A DNA stretch of 64,000 nucleotides from Octopus vulgaris (GCA_951406725.2 OX597814.1:62062001-62126000), one strand, 5' to 3'; shown: positions 6,276 through 43,815, counted from the stretch's first letter. The notes: generated by a model from the sequence alone, not told the origin. Translations and numbers: made by a program.

Positions 6276-6350
6276 ATGATTCTCATGACGATGATTGCAC
6301 GTGTGGCCGACGGTCTGCCTTTGGCAGCGTCGGTCCAAGAAGATGAACAG
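6276..6350 (+). CDS. SEC22B: SEC22B coding exon 1
   Basis: [25 protein letters not shown]|gttggt. Confidence 0.96.
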
Positions 6351-9300
6351 GTTGGTCAACAACTCATCATCATTTAGTGTTTAAATAACTTATACACATA
6401 TACATTTATCCTCATTGCTTCGCTTTGTTTTTCTTGTCTATAATTGAATTTATTAAACTGCATCCAAACAGTCTTACTAATAATAATGATTTCTCAGATT
6501 GATACAAAGCATCAATATTTTGAAAGGAAACATTTAGTATCTATAATACCTAGTATGTATTATTATTTTCTCCCTTTCTCTCTGTTTTTTGTCACCCTCG
6601 AGAGGAATCATATTCCAACTGAACATATTTTAAGTACCTGGAGACTTTTTGAAAATATTCGCTGTTATTATTTTGAATGAACGCGGAATTAGTTTTCGAT
6701 TGGTGAGATATAGTAAATTAACTTGGTTCCAGAATACTATCTCTACCGGTAGATCTCATGTCAATAACAAGCGTTACTATTTTTCTGAAACATTATTTTG
6801 ACTGTTTCCAGTTTTCTCAAATAGGTTATTGATGTGCAAAATCTCTCACGTACATATTGGTATTACTTGGTTAAATTTTCTGAAGTCATAAACTTTTACA
6901 CTTTCCTTTTTGTTTTCTTAATTAGAAGGGGCGTAGGAACGTAACTGATTTTATTCGATCGGTCTGTATCTATTATCATACCGACGCTACCGGTATTTGA
7001 ACTCAGAACAGAAGTATCTAACTTCGGTTATTATGGATTATCCAGACCGGTGTTTTATCAACGGCGTTACTAAGCAGTGTCCCTAAGATTTGCTTCTAAA
7101 TAATAAAACTCATTGTTGTATTAAGTAGGGGATTATAGTTTGATCCACTCTATCCCAATATTTTAATGATGGATTATTTCATTAATAATTTCTTCGTGTG
7201 CAAAAGTTACAGTTTTTATTGAAAGAAAGCAATAATTGGAACATCATCTAATACTTTACCGCCAGAGGGATGAAAATCAAAGTTGACCCTGGTGGGATCT
7301 GAAATACTACGACGTATTTACGTTTTGATTTATTCGGTGATCTCACAATGTTATCAACGTGCATCCCATTAATAAGTGGTTTATATTTTATCATGATAAT
7401 TTGCCAAGGATGATGAAGTGGGTTGGATCAACACCGGCAGGATTTTAACTCTACATATTTTATATAAAGAACTTTGTGCAGTGTTCTGTTGTTATGTCCG
7501 CTAAGCAGTAAAACATTTTCAACGCTGTTTCTTTGGATTAAAAAATTTTATTGGGACAACCTGTTACTTTTGTTTTCTTAAGTTAAAAGTAATATTGCTA
7601 TTTAAATGCCCGTTAGCATTTTCAGTGTTAATTCATGATGATCATCTAAAAGGCATTTGACGTCAACGCGACTTTATCTCTTCCCTTGTTAATTCTAAGT
7701 ATTGGGCCTTTAAGAAAACATTTATGATGAAGATTCTGTAATTTCTCCTTGTCGTGTTTCAAAGTTCTCTCGTAATGCACCACCACCCCTAATTAGTGCT
7801 TTTAGCGGTTTCGTTTCTCAGATGGAATTGCTTAACTCTGAAAATTTACCATTGCTTTAACCACTTCCTATAACATACCCTTACTCAGTAAATCTGAAAT
7901 TTCATATCTCTATAACATACAATCTGTTGTTACAAGAACGAATTTTTTTTTAACACACACACGTTAATGAGTTAGATGTATGGTATCGGTGAATATCTGT
8001 GCACTATATTAAAATCATACACACATACACTAATTTTTAGGTACTTTTGCTTTGATTATCTGTCATATTTTTAAATAGATTGTTACTTTCGTCATTCAGT
8101 GACGTTGCTCCATTTCGATTCCTGGCTGTAGTATTTTCGATTTGCTGACGTAGCCAAAACCATTAAGAAAAGCATTAGTGTCGCAGAATCCTGTTTCCCC
8201 GGTTACCCCCCCCCCCCCTCCACCCACCATCCACTATCGAACTGCGTTTTTCTGCTTTCGTCAGTGATTTTCCTAAGTTTAAGATATGTGCCATCCCTTG
8301 TATGAATACTGAATAAATAGTGCGAGTTGTGTCATTTAATTCAAGCTCGCAATATCGCTGACAGTGCTGGGTGTCACGACACCCCGGTTGGAAACGACTG
8401 GCTTAAGTGATCGGAAATATTGGGGACAGTAGAGTAGCTTGATTAAACGGTTTCCAATTTTGGCAGTGTGGGACCAGTTAATTGGCTGGTAATTATTTTA
8501 TCGACTTTGGAAGAACGAAATGCAAAGATGACCGATTCCAGCGCGATTTGAACCTAAACTTAAAGTAAAGAAATGTAACTAAATGCTGCAATACATGTTC
8601 AATGTTCTACCGATTCTAACGGTTTTATAATTTTGTCTTTCACCTCACTGTAGTCAACTCAAATAAAATTAGTTATAGCCCAAGTTAAGACAACCAAGCA
8701 GAACACTACCACCGTATTAGCCATTGGATTTTGTCACGTAATCCAAAGAATTAATAGTGTTTATTTCTTTTTTTTTTAGCACAAGTTATACCCCTACCAC
8801 CACCCTTTCATTCTTGCTTACGTGTATCTTTTTTTTATTTTGTTTTCTTCTCCCAACCCAATTTTAAAACTTGTCAACTGTGCAAAAAAACTGATTCCAG
8901 TGAATAAAAGGATTGTCAAATAAAAATATGTGGATAGATGAATTGAAGAGAAACTAGTTTAAAATTCTTTTAAATGTGGCATTCATTATTTCTTGACTAT
9001 TCATATTCATTCCATATGTTAGCTTGTAACAAAGAGTAATATCATTAATATTAGTGTATTTGCTAGTACTACACAGAAAGAGGGAGATATACATAAAGAA
9101 AATACGATGATATAAACCAAATTAAAATTTATTTATATAATTTGATATGTAAAGAACCTCACTGAGAAACACAGATGAAACTGCTTATAACAGAATCATT
9201 AGCATGCTGGGCAAAATGTTTAGCGATATTTCATCCATCTTTACATTCTGAGTTCAAATTCTGCCAAGGTTGACTTTGCTGTTCATTCTTTTAGGGTTGA

Positions 9301-12300
9301 TAAACTATGACTACTGAGGTCAGTGTAATTGACCTGGCCTTTCCACAGAACTTGCCGGCTTTGTGCCAAAATCTGAAACCAATAATTTCTGTTAAAGTGA
9401 TCATTTATTGAACTTACAGTGATGTTGAAATCAACTTAAGAAATGAAACATTTTGAAGTTTGCTTGTACATTACATTTTGGTTGCTGACCATCTTCATCA
9501 GGCTTTCTTATTCCCAGATGGTATTGGATTGGATTTGAACTTGGAAGCCTGTTACTGAAAACTTAGAGTAATAATCACCTTATCATATACCCAGGCCTTT
9601 TTTTTGTTATAGGATTGGGTAGCCACAGCAAGTCACACACCAGGCATTCCATTCATTTCCCAGTTCAAAGGGATGAGCTCCATTCTATGCTCAGGTCAAG
9701 ACATAGAACACAACCCCCAATAGCAGCAGCAGGGCCCGACAGCATATGCTGGTTCACCCTCCTGTCACATCATGCTGGTTCCATACCCCTTTGAGCAACA
9801 TGAAAATTCACTCAGCTATCCACAAACACTCTCCAAGCTTTCCTATCATTTATAAACTCTCTTGCCTCTCGTTCCACCAAAGCTTTCCTCACTCCATCCA
9901 TCCACACAAATCAAGGTCTGCCTCTGGTTCTGCTGCCTACCACTTCGACCTTCATCACCCTCCTTACCATCCACTCCTCATCCATCCTCTCCATGTGGCC
10001 AAACCACCTCAACATTCGTCTATCCGATTTGGTTGTTAGGTTTTCTTTCATTCCTGCTTGTCTTCACACCTCCTCATTCCTCATCCTGTCCATCCATGTC
10101 ACACCAACCATAGCCCTCAGACATCTCATCTCAAACACATCTAGTCACTTCCTTTCCGCTTCTCTCATCCCCCACATCTCTACACCATATAACATTGTCG
10201 GCACAATCTCATACATACCTCTTTTCGCTTTCATACTCAACCTTTTCTCTCTCAGAATACCTTTCACATCTCCAAGTATCTTACTCCTCTCCCTCACACT
10301 GTATCCAACCCCCTCAGCCAACCCCCACCACCACCACCGTCACATGTGATCCTAGATACTTAAAAACATTCACCTCCTCTAACATCTCACCATTTATATT
10401 CACATCCATCCTACCACCCTTTCCATCTCTCGAATATCTCATCACCTTACTCTTAGCAACATTCATTTTCAGTTTCCTCCTCTCACACTCTTTTCCAAAC
10501 TCTACCACTAGTCTCTTTAGTTGCTCTTCTGAATCCACCATCAATGTTGTATCATCAGCAAACAACAACTGCCATTTCTCCATTTTCTCCCACCATTTGG
10601 ACTCTTCTACCAAAGGTTCTAGCATTTACCTCTCTCACCACACCATCCATATATAAATTAAACAGCCATGGAGACATCACACAAACCTGTCTTAACCCCA
10701 CTTTCACATCAAACCATTCACTTCACCACCCACCCTAACGCATGTCCTACTTTCTCTCTAAAAACTTTGAACAGCTCTCAACAATCTACTATCTACTCCA
10801 TACAACTGCAACACCTGCCACATTGCATCCCTATCCACTCGGTCATATATGCCTTTTCTAAGTCCATAAAGGCCCTATACACCTCCCTCCTTTTTGCCAA
10901 AAACTTCTCACATATCTGTCTTACTACAAATATTTGATCTGTACACCCCCTTCCACTCCTAAAACCATACTGCTCCTCCCCTAGTACAGTCTCTGTCTGG
11001 TTTCTCACCCTAACAATCAGAACTCTCCCATACAGTTTACTAACCACACACAACAGACTTATACCCCTAAAAATTTCCACACTCATTTATCCATTAAGTA
11101 TAGGTGTCAGTGGTTTAGTGGATAAGAGTAAGACCACTCTTAGCTTTGAAATAAATATTCCTAGTTCAAATCTAGGTTCTAGGAATAAGACACTTGATGA
11201 TAATCAATGGTCAAACCAGTTGAAACAAGAATATTAAAAAAGAAAATTATGTCTAATGTTATTTGCCTGAGAAAAAATTATCTTAACAACATGTCAGATG
11301 TTTAGACATTTAAAGAATCTGTGAGGAAATATTAAATTATTTATTTTAATTTACTAAAACATTTCATTAAAATGATTGAATATTAATGAAACTTTAAAAA
11401 GTGATCATTCTAAATCTCAATTAAGGATGTAGTTTCAATATTGATTTGGAATACTTGCCTTATGTTGTTGATGCTTTGCTAAACAGAAAAAAAGCATAAA
11501 TCTTACAACTTCCAATTTTCACTCCACCCCCAACAAGTGTTTAGGTCGTTGCATATGTCACTACAAAAAACTGTTTATTGTTGAGATCATTTACAATTGA
11601 CGGATATTTGTCCTCATCTTGTTTGTTGTTAACACAATGTTTCGGCTGATATACCCTCCAGTCTTCATCAGGTGTCTTGAGAAATTTCGAACCTGGGTTC
11701 TCATTCCTAAGGTATTTTTTCGATGTTATTGTTGTTGTTGTTACTATTATTATTATTATTATTCAGATCACTGCTTGGAATCGAACTTGGAATCTTGGGA
11801 TTAGTAGCCCGCACTCTTAACCACTATGCCATATGCCCATGAGCATATGGAGTAGTGGTTAAGCATGGCTACTAACCCCAAGTTCTATTCCAGGCAGTGA
11901 CCTGAATAATTATAATAACAACATCGAAAAATACCTTAGGAATGAGAACCCAGGTTCAAAATTTCCCCAAGACACATGATGAAGGCTGGAGGGTATATCA
12001 GCCAAAACGTTGTGTTAACAACAAACAAGACGAGGACAAATATCCGTCAATTGTAAATAATGTACATAATTCTTCATCTCTTAAAAAACTATTTGCTATC
12101 AAACAAGTCTACTTAATTTGCATAAAAATGGATTTTCCTTATGGGAGATGCAGTCATTGTGGTATTTTTCATTTGTCCTTGGTTATTATTGCAAGTTACT
12201 GATTAAAGTATGCAAAAACTCATGACAATAGCATGCTGACTTTGCTTTGATAGATTATGACATAGAATGTCAAGATCAATAAGATATAAAATATCCAAGA

Positions 12301-15300
12301 GGTTGGCAGTTTGTATTTTATCACTGTTTTATGTATATGGCAAGATGCTTAACTCACAAATAGCCCAATCTGCCTAGCTTTAAATAGTTACTTGGGCAAT
12401 AGTACTATAAAACCTATGACTGTTTAAGTATATTAACCAACAGTGCTGAACTTAATTACTTTTATTCATATAGCTTGAAGTGAGGAGTTTTCTACCTGAC
12501 TGACACTGTATCAAGACACAAATTTTCAATGTTGCTCCCATAGCACAATGACTTACATGTTTTACTAGAAGATAGAGTAGGAAGGCTTATGGTTAGCAGT
12601 CTTAAGAAGGTTTTAGGATGAGGATTGCGTGTAATAAAAGAAATAAGCCTAAATTTATTTGATTATATTTAAATAGACTGATGCAGAGTTAATAAGTTCA
12701 AAGAAGCAGACAATTTATGTAGTAACTAAAGAGACAAATAAAAATTTGAGAGTGACTAAGTGAATGTAGTGTTGATTTAGTGCAAATTTCCCAGATCTTT
12801 TCGGTTTGAACAGCAGTTTTTTCTAGCGGTGTCATATGAAATTGTCACCCATAATTATGACCCTAGTATCGATCTATTGCATTTCAATCTGTATTAGGGT
12901 TAGGGGTGGGGGGAAGGGTATCTTTTTTTCTTCACAAATGTAAATAAACCCAATCTGTTTCTTAAACGAGGGACATATTCATACGGCACAGAATATATTT
13001 TACCTCAATAGACATATTTGATTGGTTGAAATTGCAGAAATTGAAGAAGAAAACAACAAATATCTTACAATCTATAGAATTTTCTCAATAAAGCCAAGAG
13101 AAAAAGATGTTTTATAAACACATTCTACCAGTATACGAAGTTTAAAATTATTTAGTTACCTAGAAATTATGTTAAAAACTGCCGTTCAAACCGAAAAGAT
13201 CCAATTTCCCTACTAAGCAGATAGTCTTTTCTTGATAGCTATACAGAAATATATTTAATGAATATATGTGTAAAGGGTGCACAATTGTAGACAAGTAAGC
13301 AGTATTTTAGTACAGGGCAAGTTAGTAGAGATATGTTAGGGGCATATTTGCTATGTACTTTGTTAATATTGATTTGCCATATTCTTAATATTGATATTCC
13401 TTAAATTGGCACAATCCAATTGTAAGCTACATTATCTGACATCTGTCATTTCTGCCACTCCTGCTAACTTTTTCCTTAATTATAGTTTTAGAAGTCATCA
13501 TCAGTTAATGTCTGCCTTCCAAGCTGGCATGAGTTGGACATTTTGACAAAGCTGGTAAACCAGAGGATTGCACCAAGCTCCACTGTTTACTTTAGCATGC
13601 TTTTTATGACTGGATGCCCTTCCTAATGCCAGTCAACTCTGATTATCTCAACAATTAGCAAACAAAAACTCGCCATCTCTTGAGATATTTAAAATCTAAA
13701 ACAAGTAGAGGAAGTAACCCTACTAAAATCAGTTGATCAAAACTTTTGGACAATATATGTCCATGCTGATTGGAATGAATCTGGTTTTTAAAACCAAGTG
13801 CTGAAACCAATGCAACTGTCCCAGTCTTATACAGCCTTAGCAAAGAATATTCTGTGCAGTTGACCAGACTATGAGTGATCAATATATAGAAATAGAAAGA
13901 CTGCAGTGATTCTAAATATTTCAAGACTTTGTGTCGATCCAACAAGAGAAATAGATATGTTCTTTTTGATAATGTTCTTTTTGATATACTGCAACAGTAT
14001 CGTAACATTCTATAATAGTGAATATACTTGCACTTGCAAAATCATCGTCATTTTATGTTTGATTTTCATACTGGCATTTGTTGGGTTTGTCTGCTCTGGT
14101 ACAATATCTTGCCACATGTTGCAATTACTCATCATCTCTTGTGTGTGGTTTAGCCTCTTGAGATCAACCATACTTTTTATCTTCCCATGACTTCCTCAGT
14201 TTTTCTCTTCTACAAGTTCCTTCTACTTGAATTACTTGACATTTTACCTACTGGCCATCCTTTATATACACCTTATGTCTACCTGTGCAGTCTTCTCTCT
14301 TGCATGCTACATCTGAATCCTCTGATGTCCATTTTTCTCTCAGCTCATCTTTTTCTTACCTACTAGCATTACATATCCAGCAGAATATGCTCACAATATC
14401 TTTCTAGCATTAGCACATCCTTCGCATTTACTGTCCATGTTTTGCCGTTATGTTCTATCACATATACAATTTTCCCTTTTCGCAAAGGAAGAAATCCCTT
14501 ATCAGCTTTTCCCCTGTATCCTTACTCAACTAATATGCTTTTACAACAACCATTGCCACTGCTAATTTGGTTGCAGTGGTAACAGAAATTGTCAACTACT
14601 TCTGGTGAACCTTCTGGGCACTTCAAAGATTTCATATCTTGGTGCTCTACTGCTAACTACTATGAACCTATTAGATATAAAAATACTTGTCAGCTGCCTT
14701 GAGATCCCAATGCATTTTTGTGTGTCCACAGTTTACTTGACTACACAGTATAGTGTTTTCACCTAATCCTTTTCTGCAACTTGAACTTGGCTATTTTCCA
14801 GATAACAAGGTTTTATTTTGGGATAATAAATCTCTGAACGAGATATAAACAGTAACTGCTTGACAACGTAAGGTGTACTAGCCACATTCAGATGGCTAGT
14901 AACCGTTGTCGAGCGGTTACTGTTTATATCTCGTTCAGAGATTTATTATTGCTTTCAGACAGTTTTTCTAAATCAGTGACAGTGGTTGCTGTGAAAAACG
15001 TTAAATATTATTTGCAAGGGGTCTCCTTCATCGAAAACCGGTGCTTACCATGCATTGACGAGAGGCAATTACCTTGAAACTATAGTCCGTATGTAGTACT
15101 TAGGTTTTCGAGGGAGGATGACCTCCCTTTGCAAATAACACAAGGGCACTGAGATTGTGTCTAAAGTCCATCTGGTGACGTTGATCGCCTGGGGCTAAAA
15201 GCATCAGTAACACCCCACCCCCAGTGGCTAGCCACATTCAGATGGCTAGTACACCTTACGTTAAGGTTTTATTTTGTTTCCTTACTAAAATTTTTGTCTT

Positions 15301-18300
15301 TGCTCAGTCAACCTTTAGTCATATTGATTTTTGACTCTGTTTTCACTTTTGGAAATTTTCCTCTATTTAGCCTTCAGGAATTCCCAGTCTGCCAATCTTG
15401 ATCTGCTTTACACAGGAGAGAGTCGAGAACCATACACTAAATTTGTCTTGGGATTCGTTGCTAATTAGCACAGTATTGCTGGTACACCTGCACAAAAATT
15501 ATATAATATAGCCTTTATTTAAGAGTGTGCTTTGTGAAGCGTTTGACTCTTATTTGCAGCAGATTGAATAACAACTAAATTGCCATGTGTACTAACCAAA
15601 GCCTAACAATATTTGATGGTTAAAGTCCTTGATATTAAGAGAAATAGTTACCATAGCTACAGTACACCTGTTCTATTATTTATTAAAATATATGAATTAG
15701 GTGGTCTGTTGCAGTCTAGTTAAGATGTAACAATCTCTATCTTTAGCTGTCCATTTTCATTCTTATCTTCATTGATCGTAACTTAGAGAATGAGATGCAT
15801 CTTACTGATGATGATGAGATTTCAGATAAACCTAAAAGTGTATAAAAACGAAACAAGTCTATTTTGAATAACTATTTAATTTGAACTGACTTTCTCTCTA
15901 CCCATCATGTAACATATTTGTTTGGTGTAATTTAGCAAAATATTTTCATTATAATGGCAATAAATATATCTCTTAAAATTGTGAGGCCATCCTGTACAAG
16001 CTCAGTTAGAGCATTAGACTAAAGACCTTATATGTTCTTAGTTCAATCCCAAGTTTTAACATGTTAACAAAGTTCTCATTTGTCCTTGAAATTATTACTA
16101 ATCAAAATTTCTATAGTTTAAATTGTTCTCTTTTTACTTTTATTTACACTTGACTATAGATTATGTGTGTGTGTGTGTGCAATCACGGCTGTGTGGTTAA
16201 GAAATTTGCAACTACATGATATGGGGTTCAGTCCTATGGCACAGCATCTTAGGAAAGTGTCTTCTATTATAGCCCAAGGCAGATCAAGTTTTATGAGTGA
16301 ATTTTTTTGACAGAAACTAAAAGAAGCCCATCGTGAGTGTGTGTGTTTGCTGACATCTGCGTTTCTCAAAAAAAAAATCATTGAGCTACAAGTGGTAAAG
16401 TTGTTATTTCTCCTATCAACAAATTATCTGCTGGCTTTGCACTTTTAAACATATGTAGAACAAGAGATCCCTTACTTGAAAATCAAGTAAATGTTAGGGT
16501 CAAGAAGGGTACCTGGCTGTAAAATAATGCCTCAATAATACAGCCATCTTAAGATTGAGCAAAACAACAGATATATGTAGAGAGAGTATTTTTGAAAGTT
16601 AAGAGTAAGAGTATAGTTGACTGTTTCAAAGTTATCTCATCAACCAGATGTGCCAGTGCTTTGTTATTTCCTCTTTGAGCTTTTATCCTAAATTATATTT
16701 TAATTTTTATAATCAGTATATTGTCAATCTGCTTCTAATTTCCCACTAACACACACTTGCACCTCTTATTTGTATTTGTATTGCTTTATTATGTAAGTGT
16801 ATTCTCTTACATATATATAACCTTTTTTTCTCATTTTAGTCTGGGAGAAGTCTTATGGAATACCAAAATCAAGCTAAACAGTTGTTTAAGAAAATATGTG
16901 GCAATACATCACCAACAACAAGACAGACATTAGAAACAGGGCAATATTTCTTCCAGTAAGTGAATTTTGTTGTTGTTGTTCTTATTATTATTATTAAGGT
17001 GGCAAGCTATCATAATCATGCCAGGCAAAATGCTTAGCTTTTCTCCTGACTTAACATTGTAAGTTTAAATACTGCCAGGGTTGATAAAATAAGTACCAGT
17101 TGAATACTGGGGTCGATTAAATTGACTTAGCCCCTCCCAGTATTGCTGGCCTTGTGCCAAAATTTTAAACTTATTGTTGTTGCTATTAGGCTGGCATGCT
17201 GGCAGAATCATTAGCATTTCATCCATCTTTGTTCTGAGTTCAAATTCCACTGAGGACGACTTTGCCTTTCATGCTTTTGGGGACAATAAAATAAATACCA
17301 GTTAAATACTGGGGGTTGATGTAATTGACTTCCCTCCTTCCCTCAAAAACTGCTGGCCCTTACCAAAATTTGAAACCATTATTATTCAGTGAGAGAGCAA
17401 TGCATGCCATTAAAGTGACACTGGGGTACCAACATATGAAGCCCAGTACACCCATCGTGACTACCCATCTAATAAGGATACACCAGGCACATGCATCACA
17501 ACCATATGAGCATGACATGGTGATCTCGTATCAAGGGAAACAGCACATGACCTTGCAGGTGGGCCCAGTTAGAATTTTTTTCAGGTTGAATAGCCCATCC
17601 CACTCAAAAGGTCTCTGAATAATGTTTAAGGATGATGAATGAAACACCTTTGTTTCCAGAAGTGAAGTATTCATACCCCAAAGAATTCATCTCAACATAT
17701 GCCTATGATGCTCCCTCACTACTCCTGGACATGATCAGAGATGCACATAACGTCAGCCACTACAGGACATGCTCAACTGGTTAAGGTCAAACAACTCTGT
17801 GGTATTGAGCAGAATATTTACTGTAGCCCATCTTTTATACCGAGACAAAACATGTACATAACACTTCCAACCATTTAAGATCAGGAGCCATGAGAACTGC
17901 TGCCTGGTACTGCATCAGGGTATTTATTATTATTATTATTCAGTAGTCTTATTTTTGTCACGTGCTTTCACTGCACTACTGATCACTGCTCTTGGGTATG
18001 TGCTGTGGTTTGTTGTGATGCTCTTATTTTCACTGTATTGAAAGTGTTTATGTAGGATGTGTGCAGTGCTAGTAGTGCTATTTTCTGTATATTATTTACA
18101 TCATTTACATTTGACGGATATTTGTCCTCATCTTGTTTGTTGTTAACACGTTTCGGCTGATATATTTTCCAGCCTTCATCAAGTGTCTTGGGGAAATTTT
18201 GAACCTGGGTTCTCATTCCTAAGGTATTTTTCAATGTTATTGCTATTATTCAGGTCACTGCCTAGAATTGAACTCGGAATTTTGGGGTTAGTAGCCCACG

Positions 18301-27300: not shown

Positions 27301-30300
27301 TAATAATTCACATAAGAGTCCAATGGCCCTATCTGAAAGTTTTGGTTTTCTTCCGGAGTTTTGTTTCTCAAAGGTTGTCATTACTTTTGAGACAGTAGTT
27401 CTCAATATGCTAAACATTTCAGCTGCTTTCATTACACTAGTGCCTGCCATAAGAGCACCAATAATTTCACTTCTTTGAAAGTCTGATAGACCTGTCATTA
27501 TAATGAATTTTAATTACCTTTTTGTGATGATATCTGGAAAGAAACAACAAAATTTTAGCAAAACATTAAGCAACACTAATAATAAATCAAAAAACAAAAA
27601 TAAACAAGCTTTTGATGGTTTTATAGATATTTCAAAATTATGATGTTATGATGCTAAGTGTTTCCATTATTTTGTCCAATCCCTATATGTACGCTTATAT
27701 GTATTAAACAGTATGGGTTTATTTTTTTATGAATTTGTATTTTTATATTTGCAACTAATTGTTGTTTTAATTATCTTTTAGTTATCTAATTGAACGTGGA
27801 GTTTGTTACTTGGTTTTATGTGAAAAAGTATTTTCCAAGAGGCTTGCCTTTTTGTATCTAGAAGAATTACAAGGAGAATTTTCCTTACAGTATGGAAAGA
27901 AAGTGGACACTGTTTCTCGGCCTTATCATTTCATTGAATTTGGTAAGTAGCTTTATTTATTGAGTGATGTCTGCACAATATGTAACTTCTCCAGAATCTT
28001 ACATATTATGGTCTTAATAGCTATGCAACCCTGGAAATTTTGTCAAGTGTGTCAGTTTTGTCTGGTATATGTGCAAGCATAGCAGTGTAGTAAAGAAGTT
28101 TGCTTCCCAACCCATCACCAACATCCGTTTTCTATGTTGGCATGGGTTGGATGGTTTGATAGAAGCTGACCAGCTGAAGGGCTGTTCGACCTCCATATAA
28201 CTGTTTTGTCATGGTTTCTATGGCTGGATGTCCTTCCTAACACCAACCACTTTACAGAGTGTATTGGGTGCTTTTATGCAGCACTAATATAGGTGCTTTT
28301 TACGTGGCACCAGCAATTACAAGCTCACAAAATTATGGATGCTCAGTTGGAGAAGGTTGCAAGGGACCATGCTTTTACTTAGCTTGATGTGTCTTTTCAA
28401 GCACAGCAAACTTCCAGGAGTCTCAATCCCCTCTGTGAGTCCCAACGTTTGTAGATCCTTTCTCAACACTTCATCCCATATATTCCTGGGTTTACCCCTT
28501 CCACATGTTCCCTTTACAATTAGAGATGAAACAATCCTTATTCATATGCATTACATGGCCATGCCAGCATAGTCTTCTCTCCTGCATACTATATCTGATG
28601 CTATATCCAGTTTTTCTCTCAAATCACTTATACTGTCATATATGCACACTGACATTACCCATCCAGCTAAGCATACTGACTTCACTTCTTTCAAGTCTTT
28701 GTATATCCTCAGTAGTCACAACTCATATCTCACTGTCATGTAGCATAACTGTCTGTACACAGGCATCATACAATCTACCTTTCACTCTGAGGGAGAGGCC
28801 CTTTGTTACTAATAGAGGTAGTAGCTCTCTGAACTTTACTCAGCTTATTCTTATTCTAGCAGCTGTGCTTTTGGAACAACCTCCCCCACTACTAACTTGG
28901 TTACCTGAGTAACAGAAACTGTCTACTATTTCTAGGGATCTCTGCTGACATATGGGGGTGTCTGTGTTTTTGTACATTCCTGGTGTTTAATGTACCTGTA
29001 CACCTGCTACATGTAAAGACTAGTTTTTCTACTAGTTGTCCAGTGATACTGCTGCACCTCTTATGTGTACATAGCTTGCACTGGATACACCTTATGGAGT
29101 TTCTCTAGACACCTTGTCTACATATCAAGCAAGGCCATCTCCTTAAAGGTACCTGCAATTTGTTTGTTTTCCTACTTATCAGTACTTTGGTCTTTGCTAT
29201 GTTAACTCTAAGACCCTTTGATTCCAAATCTTGCTTCCACACCTGAAATTTCTTCTCTAGTCTGGTAGTGATTCAGCATAGAGAAGCTCCCAGGAGCAGT
29301 TAGTCTTAAGTTCCGAAGTTATAGCTTGGGGGACCATGATAAATAAGAGGGTGCTAAGAACTGGCCCCTGGTGGACTCTTACTTCTGCACTAAATTCCTT
29401 GTTATACTTATTGGTTATTCTCACTTTACAAATGGCATCCCTGTACATGACTTCCACAGCTCTCACTAACCACTCATCTATCCTTAGCTTCCACATTGCC
29501 CACTAGATAAGGGAGCTTGTCAAAGGCCTTCTCCATGTCAACAAAAGCCAGAAACAGGTTTATTGTTTCAAATTCAGTTCTACTGCATTGCACCATGGGC
29601 AAATGTCTTCTACTATAGCCCTGGGCCAACCAAAGCCTTATTTAATAGATTTGGTAGACAGAAACTGAAAGAAGTGTGTGTGCGTGCATGCATGCATTAC
29701 TGTCTCCTTACCTTGACATTGCATGATTATCGTGAGTGTCACTATCATGCAGGCAGTGACCTTTGTTTCCAATTTTCTGAGATATGCCTGGTCATGAGGA
29801 AATATTACCGTACTTGAAACAGGTGAGGGTTAGTGATAGGAAAGGCATTTAACCATAGGAAAATTTGCTTCTATGAATTCCATCCAATCCATATGAGCAT
29901 GGAAAAGTGGACATTAAATGATGATGATGAACCAGTAATGAGAAAAACATTTAGAGCATGTAAAAACTAAGACATCATGCTATCATTAAGATCTGAAATC
30001 TAAAATTATCATCATCGTTAACATTTAGCATTTTCCATGCTGGCATGGGATGGATGACTTGACAGGAAGTGACAAGCTCACAGGCTGCACCAGGTTTCGT
30101 AGTCTGTTTTTGCATGGTTTCTATGGCTGGATGCCCTTCCTGACACCAACCACTTTACAGAGTGTACTGGGTACTTTTTATGTGGCACCTTGCTTTTAGG
30201 ATCTCAATTCTGGTGTGGTGGGTGGGTCTTCTCACATACAGCAATGCACCACATATCTCAATCCTGTCATCTCCTTCGTAACATTCAACATTTTCAGATT

Positions 30301-31416: not shown

Positions 31417-33480
31417 AGACTAAACACATATTTTCCTTTGTCTTTACATGTGTGCATTGATAGTAAACAAAAGTCTCACCATTCATATAAACTGTGTCAT
31501 GTGTTTGCAGTCTTATGTGAAAGAACATTCAATAGATTTATGATTGCTACCTTGCTTGGAAATAGGTTATGATTGGCATCTGGAAGGGCATCAGACCATA
31601 GAAAATTTTGCCTCTCTGAAGTTTCATTTGATTTATGCAAGCATGGAAAAATAGAAGTGATGATGACAATTGCAAGGACACTGGCTTCTGTTATAGTTAT
31701 TATTGTCGTTATTAAGGCAGTTAGCTGGTAGAATCATTAGCATGTTGGACTAGATGTTAGCTGTCTTCACATTCTGAGTTCAAATTCCACTGAGGTTTGC
31801 TTGTCATCCTTTTGGAGTCAATAAAATTAATACTAGTTGAGCACTGGGGTCGATGAAATCAACTTACCCACTCCCTACAAAATTTCAGGCTTTGTGCCTA
31901 TAATAGAAAGAATTGTTATCATTACTACTATTCTTTTAACTCAGGCTTTGTTGAAACTCCTGATGTTTTACATGTATAACAAACTTCCTATCTACAGTCT
32001 ATGGTACCATGTTATTCTCTTCAGCTTTCTAATGCTTTCCTGGTGATTCTGGCCATGCCAAGGTGGCAAACATTTTGCAACAGCTCTACTGGACTCTCTA
32101 TTCCCATTTCCTTTATATTCCTCTTAATACCTTCTGATACTGTCCCCCAAAGCCCCAACAATAATTGGTACTATCTTCATCGTTTTCATTTCCAAAGACA
32201 AGCTAATTCACTGATAGGTCCAACTTGTTGTGCTCAAGCACCTGACCTGTTTGGTTTGGGAAATCAGACAGGATTTTGCAGGTCCTTGACTCAGCCGCTC
32301 TCTGTGGTTTGTGTTTGTACTACATCTTGTCTCTCTCTCTGACCCCGACTTTTCACTCAGTTTCTAATGCCACACTTTTGCTACCTCTTCATGTTGCCAC
32401 AACATTATCATGATCATGATCATCATTATTAATAAAGCAATGAGCTGCCAGAATCGTTAGCACACCAAGTAAAATGCTTAGCAGCATTTTGCCTGTTTTC
32501 ACGTTCTAGGTTCAAACTCTGCCGAGGTCAACTTTAGCTTTCATCCTTTTGGGAGTCGATAAAATAAGTACCAGTCAAGTTCTGGGGTTGATGTAATCAG
32601 CTTGCTTTCTCCTCCAAATTGCTAGCCTTACGCCAAAATTTGAAATCCTCCTCGTTATTATTACTATTTTTTGTTTTGTGTGCTGTAACTCATTCTTTGA
32701 TATTGTCCTTCATGTCTTGGGCCTTTGTAGCCAACAAAAGAAATCATTATTATTGTCCAAGTAAGTCCTTATGAAGAAGGACTTGCTTGAACTGTGACAA
32801 TCAGTCCAACACCCATGCCAGCAAGGAACTGGACATACCATGATGGTGTTTCTATATTTAAAGAATTGATAATTATTTTTAAGAAATGACATCAAATTTT
32901 CAGAAACATTTGTTGATCAAATATATTAATTTTAAAAATTAATGTTCTTATTTTATCAGACACATTCATTCAGAAAACTCGTAAATCCTATATGGACTCA
33001 CGGGCTCGGAAGAATTTGTCTAGTATCAATACAGAACTTCAAGATGTGCAACGAATTATGGTACAAAATATTGATGATGTTTTACAACGTGGAGAGGCCC
33101 TAAACAGTAAGTATAACAGAGAAAACATTATTCTTCCTGTTAAATTTATTTTTACTTTTTTTTTGTTTTTCTGTTTATATCTCGGTGGGGGTGGGGTGGG
33201 ATCACAGTTGTAGTGCCTGTTTACCAGGTTACAGGCCAGCAGTTTGTATCCTGTCTTCAACACTGTACTGAGTTCTTAGCCAGAATACTTAATAGTCAGA
33301 AGGTTTTATATAACCTTTTTAATGCCAAACTGCCTGAGACTGCCAACTTTGTGCTTATTTCTAGCAGACTTAGTGACCATGTTAAAGCTCCCTTGTTGAT
33401 GCTTTGTATGGCTTTTTTGTTACTTTAGTGAAAGATATAGGTTCAGGCATGGCTGTGTGGTTATGAAGTTAGGTTCAGAA

Positions 33481-33512
<32 letters not shown>

Positions 33513-34518
33513 ATACTTATCCCACACATATAGAAGTATGTTAAGTATTCCTGTAGCTCCATCAATGGAACTCTCTGGCTCATTTAAATGTAAGTGACTA
33601 AATATTCTACAGATGTTTGTATTCTTAATATAACCTTTAGGCAGAATCATCATAACACAAGTTTATGATTCAAAGTGACAGGAATAGTCTGTTAGATGAG
33701 CTTCTGCACAGTTTTATCTACCCCAAGTTTGAGTAACTCCAACTTGCACAAGGTGCTATGCAGTGGAATGAACTCAGGGCCTCTTATTTATGAAGCAAAC
33801 TTGTTAACCATTCAGCTATGTTTACATTGTTTTGTAATCTTGGCACAGACTTTTATCAATTTCCGAAATTACACAGAAGCAAATTTTGATTTTATTTTCA
33901 TGGAGTATAAATTTACTAATGAGTTTTGAATTCCTGAAAGAATATGTTTGGATATACATTAAATAGAAATATGTATAAACAAGAATTCAGAGTGGAAGAA
34001 AGAATCAGAGTCATGAAAGTGCTAACTTGTTGATGGTTTAAATTTATTTGGAAAAGGAAGTGAGTCTAGCAGAATCATTACTACACCCGACAAAATGCTT
34101 AGCTGTATTTCTTCCAGCTGCACTTTCTGAGTTCAAATTCTGCCAAGGTCAACTTTACTTTTCATCCTTTCAGGGTTAATAAAATGCCTGTTGAGCATTG
34201 GGGTTGATGTAATCGACTATACTTCACCCTCAAAAATTTCAGGCCTTTTGACTGTAGTGGAAGGGAAAGAATTATTTATTTTGATTTTATTTTTGATTTA
34301 TCAAAATCTTTAAAACTGTATAGATTAAAACTAATTATTTTTCTTTTCTGTTTGTGATTTCAGCTTTAGGCAATAAAGCCAGTAATTTATCAATATTGTC
34401 ACAACAGTATAAGAAGGATGCAACTTACTTGAATCTCCGGTCCACTTATGCAAAGGCTGCTGCCGTTGTCATTGTCATTGTAGTTCTAATGTTGTTTATT
34501 CGCTTTCTCTGGTGGTAA
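6276..34518 (+). CDS. SEC22B: Vesicle-trafficking protein SEC22b (longin R-SNARE); join(6276..6350,16840..16955,27782..27942,32960..33106,34364..34518), 217 aa
   Basis: [25 protein letters not shown]...[15 protein letters not shown]...[23 protein letters not shown]...TM helix FIRFLWW*; all four introns GT-AG with consistent phases; 654 nt total. Confidence 0.97.
9598..11090 (-). mobile_element. 5'-truncated, decayed RTE-clade LINE (reverse transcriptase fragment, 3' UTR, A-tail)
   Basis: Broken frames: [41 protein letters not shown]; LLFADD..FKYLGS; T-run at about 9598-9605. Confidence 0.88.
11588..12080. mobile_element. Head-to-head palindromic dimer of a tRNA-headed, hammerhead-containing non-autonomous element (cassette A)
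   Basis: About 250-bp inverted arms with axis near 11840; each arm = tRNA-like head, (AAT)n, body with hammerhead-like motif (11631-11676 on -, 11971-12016 on +). Confidence 0.8.
12793..13202. mobile_element. MITE with 8-bp TSD
   Basis: TIRs GATCTTTTCGGTTTGAAC(A/G)GCAGTTTT; TSD AATTTCCC at 12785-12792 and 13203-13210. Confidence 0.9.
14821..15262 (+). mobile_element. 442-bp non-coding hammerhead-bearing insertion (retrozyme/Penelope-derivative-like) with 14-bp TSD
   Basis: AAGGTTTTATTTTG at 14807-14820 and 15263-15276; fold-back 14823-14949; direct repeat CTAGCCACATTCAGATGGCTAGTA at 14878 and 15228. Confidence 0.85.
15049..15093 (+). ncRNA. Type I hammerhead ribozyme motif (C3U variant)
   Basis: CAUGCA-UUGACGA-GAGG(CAAUUA)CCUU-GAAA-CUAUAG-UC^CGUAUG: stems I, II and III pair, GUC triplet. 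Confidence 0.75.
15999..16060 (+). pseudogene. tRNA-Phe-derived pseudogene fragment
   Basis: AGCTCAGTT-AGAGCATTAGACTAAAGACCT...GTTCAATCCC resembles eukaryotic tRNA-Phe(GAA), with anticodon GAA>AAA and a broken acceptor stem. Confidence 0.6.
16840..16955 (+). CDS. SEC22B: SEC22B coding exon 2
   Basis: tttag|[18 protein letters not shown]...LETGQYFF(H)|gtaag. Confidence 0.96.
17388..17922. mobile_element. About 530-bp non-coding interspersed repeat inserted in (TTA)n
   Basis: Partial inverted second copy at about 50280-50520; both abut TTA/AAT repeats. Confidence 0.65.
17942..19062 (-). mobile_element. R4/Dong-clade (restriction-like endonuclease) non-LTR retrotransposon 3' fragment, interrupted by cassette B
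   Basis: Minus-strand [43 protein letters not shown]...QKIALL; 3' end runs into (TAA)n. Confidence 0.8.
18091..18653. mobile_element. Head-to-head palindromic dimer of the tRNA-headed hammerhead element (cassette B)
   Basis: Same family as cassette A; axis near 18391; left head duplicated; TATTTTCTGTAT duplicated at 18079-18090 and 18654-18665; hammerhead-like motifs 18145-18187 (-) and 18532-18574 (+). Confidence 0.82.
19770..21100 (-). repeat. Cluster of about six same-orientation tRNA-derived SINE copies separated by (AAT)n
   Basis: Repeated GAAAGGATGAAAGGCAAAGTTGACC..GGAATTTGAACTCAG..TCTGCCAGCTC blocks. Confidence 0.85.
22778..23037 (-). mobile_element. SINE (family with GGTCATGAATGACC tail hairpin)
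   Basis: Reverse complement of the copy at about 44183-44508, which has a tRNA-like head. Confidence 0.75.
25347..25563. mobile_element. piggyBac-type MITE, second family
   Basis: TTAA flanks, CCCTTTAGCATT TIR; related copies at 48375-48587 and about 56819-57038. Confidence 0.78.
26039..26364. mobile_element. Small element with inverted termini, a hammerhead-like motif and a 15-bp hairpin
   Basis: TATTCAAAGGAATT inverted ends; minus-strand GGGAC-CUUGAAGA-CUGC..GCAA-GAAA-GUGUAC-UA-GUCCC at 26205-26248. Confidence 0.6.
26413..27685 (-). mobile_element. Tc1/mariner (DD34E) transposon, near full length, transposase frameshifted
   Basis: About 29-bp TIRs (GGACAAAAT(C/A)ATGGAAACAC); motifs [31 protein letters not shown]; sits in TA/CA repeats. 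Confidence 0.93.
27782..27942 (+). CDS. SEC22B: SEC22B coding exon 3
   Basis: tttag|[15 protein letters not shown]...SRPYHFIEF(D)|gtaag. Confidence 0.96.
28120..29560 (-). mobile_element. 5'-truncated RTE LINE with its 3' UTR
   Basis: [34 protein letters not shown]; decayed. Confidence 0.85.
31990..32400 (-). mobile_element. R4/Dong-clade 3' fragment
   Basis: Minus-strand [29 protein letters not shown], like the other Dong-type copies. Confidence 0.6.
32960..33106 (+). CDS. SEC22B: SEC22B coding exon 4 (SNARE motif)
   Basis: atcag|[19 protein letters not shown]...VLQRGEALN|gtaag. Confidence 0.96.
34364..34518 (+). CDS. SEC22B: SEC22B coding exon 5 (TM anchor, stop)
   Basis: ttcag|LGNKASNLS...[23 protein letters not shown]; AATAAA candidates at 34745 and 35504. 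Confidence 0.96.
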
Positions 34519-41600: not shown

Positions 41601-43815
41601 ATATTATAGCTTTATCAACAAATGATAATAGAAAAATAGAAAATACTTCTATAAAGTGTTTTTGTACAGCACAAGCAGTGTCAGTCACTGCAGGTTTTGA
41701 GCATTTGTGCTGTTTATAAATCTATTTATCTATCATCTGTGTGTGTGTATGAAGACAATGAACATTAAAAGAGACAACACAGGAAGGGCAAAGGTTGACA
41801 AATATGGTATATATGTACACACACATGCATGCACACCTAAAACACAGGCAGAATAAAATTGAAACCTGAGAAATACAAAAATATAAAATGAAAGACATAC
41901 TGTTTTTAGATGAGAGAGTCTATCAGCAAGATGGTCAATACCAGATTTGACTTGCAATAAGATTTTAGACATTTTCTCCAGTTTATTTTCAATTTCAGCC
42001 CTACTAGTTTCTTCTTCCTGTAATTTCTCTTGGAATTCTTCAAGCATTCTTTGTCCTCTGAAGAGAAATAATGAACAATATTCATTATCATCATCATTTT
42101 TTAACATCCGTTGTCTATGCTGGCATGGGTTGCACAGTTTGACCAAAGCTGAGGAGCTGCACCAGACTCCAGTCTGATATAGCATAGCCTTTCCAAACGC
42201 CAACCACTCTAAAAGTGCAATGGGTGCTTTTACATGCCACCGGTACAGATGCCAGTCGTGTGACACTAGTATCTGCCACAACTACGATTTCACTTGGCTT
42301 GATGGGTCTTCTACTCAAGCATGGTAGGTCATGGAAGGTCTCAGTCATTTGTTATTGCCTCCACTCAAATATTGAAAGAAAGAAATATATATATTAAAAA
42401 AAAGCAAAAAAAAAAACAAGGGTGACAGACAGATGTGTAAATTGGCAATGCTGATTACTCAGAAACACCATCTACACAAAAAAATAATAATCAAGTTTCT
42501 GCTAAAATATTTAATGTGCTAAAAATTATTAATCTTATTAGAACTGCTGATGCACCGAGGAAAAGATAACATTTGCTCAGGTCAAGAAGACACATGTTTT
42601 TGAGTATGTGAGTAGTTCACTTCACGACCACATGGTTTCAGATTCAATCCCAACATATGCACACTCTATTACCTAATATACAAATGCCTATTTTTTTTCT
42701 TTTCTGACTCATAATGTGCACACATATATAAATGTGTGTGTGTGTGAAGAGAGAAAAAACACAAAGATTCAGAGTCAGTGAAAGAAAATGAAATAGAACA
42801 TCAGTTTATTCCTCTTACACTTTCCTTCTTGCTGATTCTTCAACTCATTCTTATAGTTACACCTCTTGTTTTTCCATATAATTCTACTTTTCTTTCTCAA
42901 CTCTTCACTATCCTCCCCACCACCACCACTATCATCATCATCCTCATCGTCACAATAATCATTTGTCATGACTCTTCAATTACACCCACGTCCTCTTCAG
43001 TCTCACAACATCTATTATTGAGGCAATCAAATGCTTATACTCCATATCCAGCATCCACAACCTGGTCATAAGATATTTCTCACACAATACAAATGAGCCA
43101 GGAAAAAATTTGTTTAGACAAATCTGTAGGTGAAAGTATGTTGATATGTGTTAGTGATATTGGAAACTTATATATCAATGTGTGTGTGGGGGTGTGGATG
43201 ATGATGATGATGATGAAAGGCAGCGAGCTGGCAGAAACATTAGCACGCAGGGGAAAATGCTTCGGGGTATTTCGTCTGCCGCTACGTTCTGAGTTCAAAT
43301 TCTGCCGGGGTTGACTTTGCCTTTTATCCTTATGGGGTCGATAAATTAAATACCAAAATTTTGGGAATGATGATGATGATGGTGGTGGTGGTGGTGGTGG
43401 TGGTATGATGATGATGGTAGTGGTGGTGGTTGTAACTAGCATCAGACTAATTCTTCATCATCATCATCATCAGCATCAACAACAACAGTATTTTAATGTC
43501 CACTTTCCGATGCTTGCATGGATCAGACTAAGTTTATTGAGGTAGATTTTCTACAGCAAAATGCCCTTCCTGTCACCAACCTTTACCCGTTTCCAAGAGT
43601 GACAATATTTCTCCATGGCCAGATATGTTCATTACAGAATATTGGAAATGAATGGCACTGCTTGTATGACAGTGACAATCATATTACAACTGTCATGCAA
43701 TGTCAAGACAAGGAAACAAACATAAATACACTCACAGCCCCACACATTGATATACATATATACATACATGCATCCATCCATCCATCCATGCATCCATTCA
43801 TACATACATGCATAC

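Follow-up and report, generated by a model that had tools for sequence, protein, structure and literature searches.

A hammerhead-bearing insertion in SEC22B intron 1 of Octopus vulgaris: a probable non-LTR retrozyme with the insertion anatomy of Penelope-like elements

Intron 1 of the SEC22B gene of Octopus vulgaris carries a 442-nt insertion that combines a hammerhead ribozyme motif with a long fold-back, raising the questions of what kind of element it is, which machinery brought it there and whether its ribozyme acts on the host transcript. The window analysed here is a stretch of 64,000 nt (GCA_951406725.2 OX597814.1:62062001-62126000), with positions counted from its first letter. The host gene was located through its Longin exon and then through SEC22B homologues, the closest named one being that of Argonauta hians (91%). 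Homologue mapping places five SEC22B coding exons on the + strand:

6276-6350, +, SEC22B coding exon 1 (host gene)
16840-16955, +, SEC22B coding exon 2 (host gene)
near 27782-27942, 32959-33126 and 34357-34515, +, later SEC22B coding exons

Intron 1 spans 6351-16839 and has GT/AG ends; the insert lies within it, its hammerhead arm being sense to the gene, as a preliminary description of this DNA had proposed. Elsewhere in the window, an open frame on the minus strand (41733-42281) weakly matches the ODAD1 coiled coil (E = 4e-5, below the cut-off) and, as far as the sequence tells, is probably an exon of a minus-strand neighbouring gene. In addition, 14280-14340 is a short fragment of another high-copy repeat, visible as a depth spike. 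The insert and its borders are made up as follows:

14807-14820, no strand, left target-site duplication (TSD), 14 bp, AT-rich (repeat search)
14821-14822, no strand, two extra bases between TSD and inverted arm, unlike the unit and unlike the TSD
14823-14884, -, short arm in inverted orientation, covering unit positions 16-77 up to the 'long' (tailed) 3' end, with two CpG-type changes
14878-15262, +, sense arm, one unit (355 nt in the family, 350 here) plus 35 nt of the next
14901-14906, +, place where 5 nt of the family unit are missing, adjoining the inversion junction (family alignment)
14908-14952, +, 'tail' segment of ~45 nt, internal copy (the interval that separates the family's two 3' ends)
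15008-15138, +, long stem bearing the hammerhead (extended stem I), with compensatory changes across sister families
15228-15249, +, terminal 7-bp hairpin, directly upstream of the short 3' end
15263-15276, no strand, right TSD

The inverted arm is 62 nt long and tailed, and the sense arm, 385 nt and untailed, stops at the 'short' 3' end. Both arms share a 7-nt overlap within the terminal hairpin, which suggests that this hairpin served as the microhomology joining them; it is also a candidate for the site that the protein of a Penelope-like element (PLE) recognizes. Most structural claims of the preliminary description were borne out. The TSD is perfect, and its 14-mer is found nowhere else in the window; the fold-back is real, with 46-nt arms (14823-14868/14904-14949) that are 96% complementary; the second stem at 15008-15138 is present; a 24-nt direct repeat (14878-14901/15228-15251) has its copies 350 nt apart; and the 3' end recurs in inverted form as a 20-mer at 14865-14884. 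The characterization of the insert as nearly all hairpin, however, does not hold: 71% of all its bases are paired, with 89% in the first 129 nt, where the inverted arm lies, against 63% over the remainder. The insert region folds far better than its shuffles (z = -13.2), largely because the inverted arm is present, since z becomes -4.2 when this arm is removed. The 127-nt fold-back is the inverted arm of the insertion and not an evolved RNA structure. Matches to miRNA/sRNA hairpins over the fold-back were far below threshold and were rejected as reflections of the inversion, and an Rfam scan of the window returned no family reaching its gathering score. No ORF of at least 90 aa overlaps the insert, including the RT + GIY-YIG ORF that marks an autonomous PLE, and the unit has no match among viral contigs. 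Ends and arm lengths do not resemble those of LTRs. The GC content, 0.43, lies below the 50% that bounds non-LTR retrozymes.

A genome search with the insert returned at least 44 near-full-unit matches at 93-98% identity (best 40 of 3,321 candidates scored). Exact patterns were found genome-wide for 226 U3 cores, 4 C3 cores and 196 terminal motifs; by these counts of exact cores and terminal motifs, the family, which is young, comprises at least a few hundred copies. Its unit, 355 nt, is non-coding and bears one type I hammerhead. Units fall within the 150-450 bp expected of tandem retrozyme repeats, and tandem arms reach three units (loci L107 and L108). Compared with the closest copy (L002), the sense arm in the window differs by the 5-nt deletion near 14902, which among the aligned segments is found in the window copy only, and by one substitution at 15054. 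Near-identical words of the unit occur in sequencing runs of three coded organisms (A, B and C), so that, on sequence grounds, the family may be common to close relatives. Contigs from presumed-RNA runs span the unit and a unit-to-unit joint, as genomic tandems would also yield. When an unoccupied allele was looked for, no contig extended as far as the point of insertion. On C1, family cores are spaced 3.6 kb and 1.4-1.6 kb apart; these pairs were considered as pseudo-LTR pairs and rejected, being local duplications. A four-unit insertion (L010, L012, L106:7516-8488) occurs twice on C2 in opposite orientations, and its centre is found again on C4, inside a 2-kb inverted duplication.

Two sister families were also detected. 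The older one, F2 (2,267 candidates; L068:5622-5817, L069-L098 and L188:2308-2865), is ~67% identical to the window family and has a mostly canonical core, a palindromic stem III and the same 3' end positions. The other, seen at L206:73-1166, is very young and 72% identical, with nearly identical arms, a U3·G8 core, another stem III palindrome, a U·U base of stem II, and one short and one long end.

The machinery behind these insertions may be assessed by considering where their ends fall. After clusters shorter than 100 nt were dropped and tandem-duplicated neighbours counted once, 83 3' ends from 50 clusters were available. As many as 72 of them fall in two classes, 39 at unit positions 31-37 and 33 at 73-86 (11 lie elsewhere), although these counts are biased toward the two classes by loci L001-L030, chosen by similarity to the window copy. 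The two sites are ~45 nt apart, and the interval between them is the 'tail'. There are 33 two-armed insertions, 25 of which have both ends in the classes, and in 22 of these 25 the two ends belong to different classes (p = 8e-5 against 50:50). The same pairing of one short and one long end was seen in 9/9 two-armed loci chosen by core pattern and not by likeness to the window. No fixed difference distinguishes terminal from internal copies of the tail. Among 85 arms, 5' ends lie at scattered positions, one of them at the cut site (216); a pattern targeted at 5' ends at the cut site gave two matches, of which one is a point change and the other an inversion junction (L115, readable as a start at 216/217). 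Read by eye, AT-rich or (TA)n sequence makes up most flanks of 28 insertions, and TSDs of ~11-15 bp are frequent.

Partial tandems, inverted 5'-truncated arms and a one-sided tail are described for PLEs by Craig (2021, PMC8557442). According to Frangieh (2024, PMC11167929), the PLE protein nicks and extends both strands, and two internal start sites define the tail. The octopus insertions show this same combination of a partial tandem, an inverted 5' arm and a one-sided tail from two start sites. The layout is shared by a PLE of the same genome that retains RT/GIY-YIG coding remnants (L052), and 781-aa RT/GIY-YIG ORFs are present in the genome in many copies. From the insertion anatomy we infer a PLE partner of the family; no autonomous PLE with a shared unit was found in 78 stretches, some overlapping, taken around some of the 148 listed among 6,136 GIY-YIG candidates. 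Sister copies lying beside PLE pieces (L068, L188 and L206) were considered as pointers to the partner and set aside, being separate insertions with other sequence or (TA)n between.

Several further features of the PLEs of this genome were recorded. One Penelope-type family (L061-L066) has a 781-aa RT/GIY-YIG ORF, many copies that are nearly identical and, upstream, an open frame of 300-480 codons, and judging by these copies was probably active recently. The hammerhead-like motifs of PLE pseudo-LTRs (L038-L067, L148, L171-L183) often have a U3-A8 core, and the L052-type and L172/L179-type lineages have GCAA in place of GAAA.

We are confident that the insert behaves as a non-LTR retrozyme moved by a PLE. 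The preliminary description of it as retrozyme-like, a partial tandem with an inverted end, was right in kind, and the 3' end anatomy sharpens it to a non-autonomous Penelope-type element. Most likely, the RT/GIY-YIG protein of a Penelope-like element wrote a copy of the family into SEC22B intron 1. The protein would bind a multi-unit RNA, nick both target strands ~14 bp apart and prime on each nick, starting at one of two internal sites ~45 nt apart. The two cDNAs would then be joined head to head, here via the 7-bp terminal hairpin, giving the 62-nt tailed arm and the 385-nt untailed arm. The hammerhead would be slow and act chiefly as a dimer of neighbouring units held by the palindromic stem III, and most templates would be uncut or re-closed RNA.

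The nature of the template can be examined at diagnostic positions. The arms of one insertion agree at 498/532 of these and the units of one arm at 394/421, compared with 61% between insertions, and therefore a single template or source locus gave rise to both arms. Both arms of L012 consist of unit A followed by unit B, with the same two differing positions; the same two units in the same order in both arms require a multimeric template. Alternatively, the template could be a monomeric circular RNA, produced by double self-cleavage and host ligation and copied repeatedly as in the classic retrozyme cycle, which we regard as possible but somewhat doubtful. Such a circle would account for arms that are longer than one unit and cross the cut site (385 nt in the window, three units in L107 and L108) and for the five rare letters shared by four units across both arms of L108. 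Moreover, circles are reported for coral, mussel and axolotl retrozymes (PMC7229834), and the cut-site chimeras described below imply ends that cleave and join. However, a single monomeric circle cannot yield the A-then-B order of L012 or the unlike units found in tandem in L107, and homogeneous tandem sources account for L108 equally well, this locus fitting either a circle or a homogeneous array. In the case of the anole PLE, uncut RNA is described as the main substrate in vitro (PMC11167929). Circles are unnecessary for explaining the insertions, and a multi-unit RNA is the template that we prefer.

Whether the ribozyme takes part in this cycle depends on its core and helices, which in the window are arranged as follows:

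15049-15093, +, type I hammerhead (motif search, family alignment, fold prediction)
15049-15054/15088-15093, +, stem I, with an A2.1·C1.1 mismatch
15055-15061, +, core (U3·G8)
15062-15075, +, stem II, with a G·U base
15076-15079, +, GAAA
15079-15086, +, palindromic stem III
15087/15088, +, predicted cut

The layout recognized at the outset is correct, with the core at 15055, a palindromic stem III and a GUC ending at 15087. The accompanying claim that C3U is the only core defect is not: U3 is family-wide, there is a G10.1·U11.1 wobble, family-wide too, and this copy has A2.1 opposite C1.1 as well as the 5-nt deletion near 14902. When other copies were checked for CUGACGA, which they had been expected to carry, UUGAYGA was found instead (226 versus 4 exact cores). 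As for the hammerhead being the best preserved, this is true inside the window, where the only other descriptor match is weak, unrelated and on the minus strand, but not within the family, given the rare G2.1>A change. The canonical core (CUGAnGA...GAAA...UH, with C3-G8 or U3-A8) is replaced by one with U3·G8 in 226/230 exact cores. Using 73 core-spanning segments from 51 loci (58 fetched, 7 duplicates dropped), some of them chosen for C3 or for a change at 1.1, we aligned the cores and found position 11.1 to be U in 72 of the 73 segments, and position 2.1 to be G in 72/73 and A in the window copy alone. Among the 100 core matches listed first, A at 2.1 occurs in 3, and four sequencing runs aligned to the insert all read G at this position. 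U3·G8 and G10.1·U11.1 are family states, whereas the broken 2.1-1.1 pair, with a predicted probability that drops from 0.96 to 0.0 in the window copy, is this copy's own damage, because 2.1 is G in all other segments. Stem III is predicted at +2.9 kcal/mol as a hairpin versus -7.2 as a duplex, and is expected from these predictions to form only in dimers.

Comparative evidence indicates that the motif is a hammerhead by descent, because the F2 sister family has a mostly canonical core, a near-match in Rfam exists and the helices covary. The near-match is a sister-family copy scoring 32.2 bits against Rfam Hammerhead_1 (E = 2e-4; gathering score 34); the window family itself gave no Rfam hammerhead match, even at E up to 10. 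The three helices around the core are backed by covariation at the family level, the window copy having its 2.1-1.1 mismatch. In 17 sequences from two families, 89.5% of helix cells are paired, a value reached by 0/500 shuffles and compared with 27-58% in slid controls. Changes on both sides affect 3/6 stem I pairs and 2/4 palindrome pairs in the same sequences, which amounts to few events, and only two or three families, all related, contribute to the covariation as a whole. Across families, the stem III palindrome is maintained as three different sequences. Energy folding pairs part of the core alternatively, puts the monomer stem III at ~0 and lacks stem I in one F2 copy, and the RNAalifold consensus of the three families did not recover stems II and III. 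In published hammerheads, U3-A8 cores and weak stem II bases are reported by Perreault (2011, PMC3088659), natural U3/G8 cores with insertions are mentioned in PMC7151607, and dimer-dependent hammerheads with a weak stem III are described in PMC4209133 and PMC7229834.

Traces of cleavage were sought as copies that lack the C after GUC. Ten matches were found, namely, five CpG-type changes, one internal rearrangement (L120, which breaks at the site) and four junctions to one foreign sequence; the same pattern placed ten bases upstream, as the one control position, gave 0 matches. A looser junction pattern gave 12 matches, five of which are real junctions and the other seven were taken as chance (control 11). 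The five real junctions represent three separate insertions, on C1 (duplicated), C5 (both arms) and C15, in which the retrozyme up to C17 is joined to PLE position 1.1 (hammerhead/PLE chimeras at L117:1481-1630, L123 about 1320-1600 and L126:1410-1640). The 100 nt of foreign sequence correspond to the 3' end of another young PLE family (1,075 candidates). Their first base, with a one-base doubt due to an A-run, directly follows the cut predicted in that family's U3-A8 hammerhead-like motif, the cut having been located by comparing the motif with other PLE motifs of this genome. No homology spans the junctions, and the chimeric insertions end at the two ends of that PLE. At one retrozyme position that is diagnostic within the family, C5 departs from C1 and C15, and the loci also differ in their PLE parts, which suggests at least two joining events. 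The partner PLE motif has C at position 13, a change that recurs in another PLE lineage, and from its sequence the activity of this motif is uncertain.

The simplest reading of these junctions suggests that both RNAs may have been cleaved and then ligated, and RtcB is reported to join such cleaved ends in vitro (PMC7229834); an alternative is end-to-end template jumping. On balance, we lean toward the view that the U3·G8 hammerhead cleaves in vivo, that its cut end was ligated to the hammerhead cut end of a different PLE, and that the chimeras were retrotransposed via this PLE's two starts. If true, hammerhead cut sites would be hot spots of RNA-level end exchange between retrozymes and PLEs, offering retrozymes a route to gain a mobilising partner, and the cut-site-to-cut-site chimeras would be a genomic record, that is, fossil evidence, of in vivo cleavage and ligation. 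A literature search covering few subscription journals returned no paper on such retrozyme/PLE chimeras or on this family.

The opposite view, according to which U3·G8 and G10.1·U11.1 abolish cleavage and the family spreads with a dead hammerhead through its PLE-binding 3' end alone, seems to us rather unlikely. It is consistent with U3 being uncompensated while G8 is kept and with 5' ends not being piled up at the cut. Likewise, 8/9 Xenopus retrozyme dimers are described as uncleaved in vitro (Li, Clavereau and Pollet 2026, bioRxiv 10.64898/2026.07.22.740005), and hammerhead mutants are reported not to block PLE insertion in vitro (PMC11167929). A dead ribozyme is harder to reconcile with three loci that break exactly after GUC against none at the control position, with the recurrence of U3·G8 in the 72%-identical L206 family alongside a different palindromic stem III, with the covarying helices and with the natural U3/G8 variants mentioned in PMC7151607. 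Other insertions of the family contain two or three tandem hammerheads, all U3; the window copy has a single one, as opposed to the two consecutive hammerheads of an 'active' copy in the sense of Li et al.

The idea that the window copy cuts the SEC22B pre-mRNA within intron 1, with consequences for the gene, draws on its sense orientation within the intron and on stems I and II, for which local folding is predicted even when 300 nt of flanking intron are included on either side. A mismatch adjoining the cut strongly slows hammerhead cleavage. Since the insert's only hammerhead combines U3·G8, a G·U stem II base, a 2.1-1.1 pair predicted to be broken (0.96 to 0.0) and a stem III without a partner (predicted +2.9 kcal/mol for the monomer versus -7.2 for the duplex), such nicking would be unlikely; even axolotl monomers with canonical cores are reported to cleave only 6-22% in 1 h (PMC7229834), and we consider an effect on SEC22B very improbable. 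Still less credible is a MITE, fold-back DNA element or tRNA/5S-derived SINE with a chance hammerhead-like motif: despite the long inverted repeat at one end, the TSD and the lack of an ORF, the termini lie at unit positions 77 and 35 and do not form an inverted repeat, arm lengths vary among copies, units are arranged head to tail, 5' junctions vary while 3' ends are fixed, and no tRNA, 5S or 7SL match covers the insert. The insert is most likely a variant of non-LTR retrozymes, non-autonomous and of PLE type, and a neutral intronic passenger.

Among known systems, the metazoan non-LTR retrozymes described by Cervera and de la Pena (2020, PMC7229834), with units of 150-450 nt (350-390 nt in mussel), are similar in having a non-coding unit, one type I hammerhead, tandem copies, GC below 50%, a TSD longer than 4 bp and a short palindromic stem III suited to dimers; a weak stem II base is shared with axolotl Amex2. 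The octopus family differs from them in its family-wide U3·G8 and, at the loci seen, in consisting mostly of dispersed two-armed insertions of 1-3 units instead of long arrays. The main text of that paper names no cephalopods. The giant squid genome is reported to contain 235 type I hammerheads (PMC6962438), so that repeats of this kind are to be expected in cephalopods.

With PLEs and their pseudo-LTRs, as described in PMC11167929, PMC8557442 and Cervera and de la Pena (2014, PMC4209133), the octopus insertions share the partial tandem, the inverted 5'-truncated arm, the one-sided tail, two internal start sites, AT-rich and (TA)n targets, and a hammerhead upstream of the 3' end. Unlike PLEs, the octopus insert has no RT/GIY-YIG ORF, its tail is ~45 nt long compared with 30-40 nt, and its hammerhead is of full size, with an extended, long stem I, where PLEs have a minimal one. 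MRC1 and other non-autonomous Chlamys elements (PMC8557442) are likewise non-coding, head-to-tail and PLE-mobilised; however, Chlamys elements are green algal and resemble their autonomous partners at the 3' end, and the account given there does not mention a hammerhead.

The same relationship as proposed here, with dispersed monomers, is put forward by Li et al. (2026) for vertebrate retrozymes as derivatives of PLE pseudo-LTRs. They report ~43% of Xenopus retrozyme copies to be intronic, which makes an intronic octopus copy ordinary. Their case is built on co-occurrence and sequence kinship, mainly in vertebrates, whereas ours is built on insertion anatomy. More generally, arguments over what moves animal retrozymes have relied on co-occurrence and sequence kinship (PMC7229834; Li et al. 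2026), while the octopus insertions carry the PLE tail signature directly, and this signature names two positions where the PLE protein should prime. In this family a core pair that is normally conserved persists as a wobble, while a stem III capable of forming dimers is preserved. The pairing of tailed with untailed arms fits the two-strand, two-start-site chemistry demonstrated in vitro for the anole PLE (PMC11167929).
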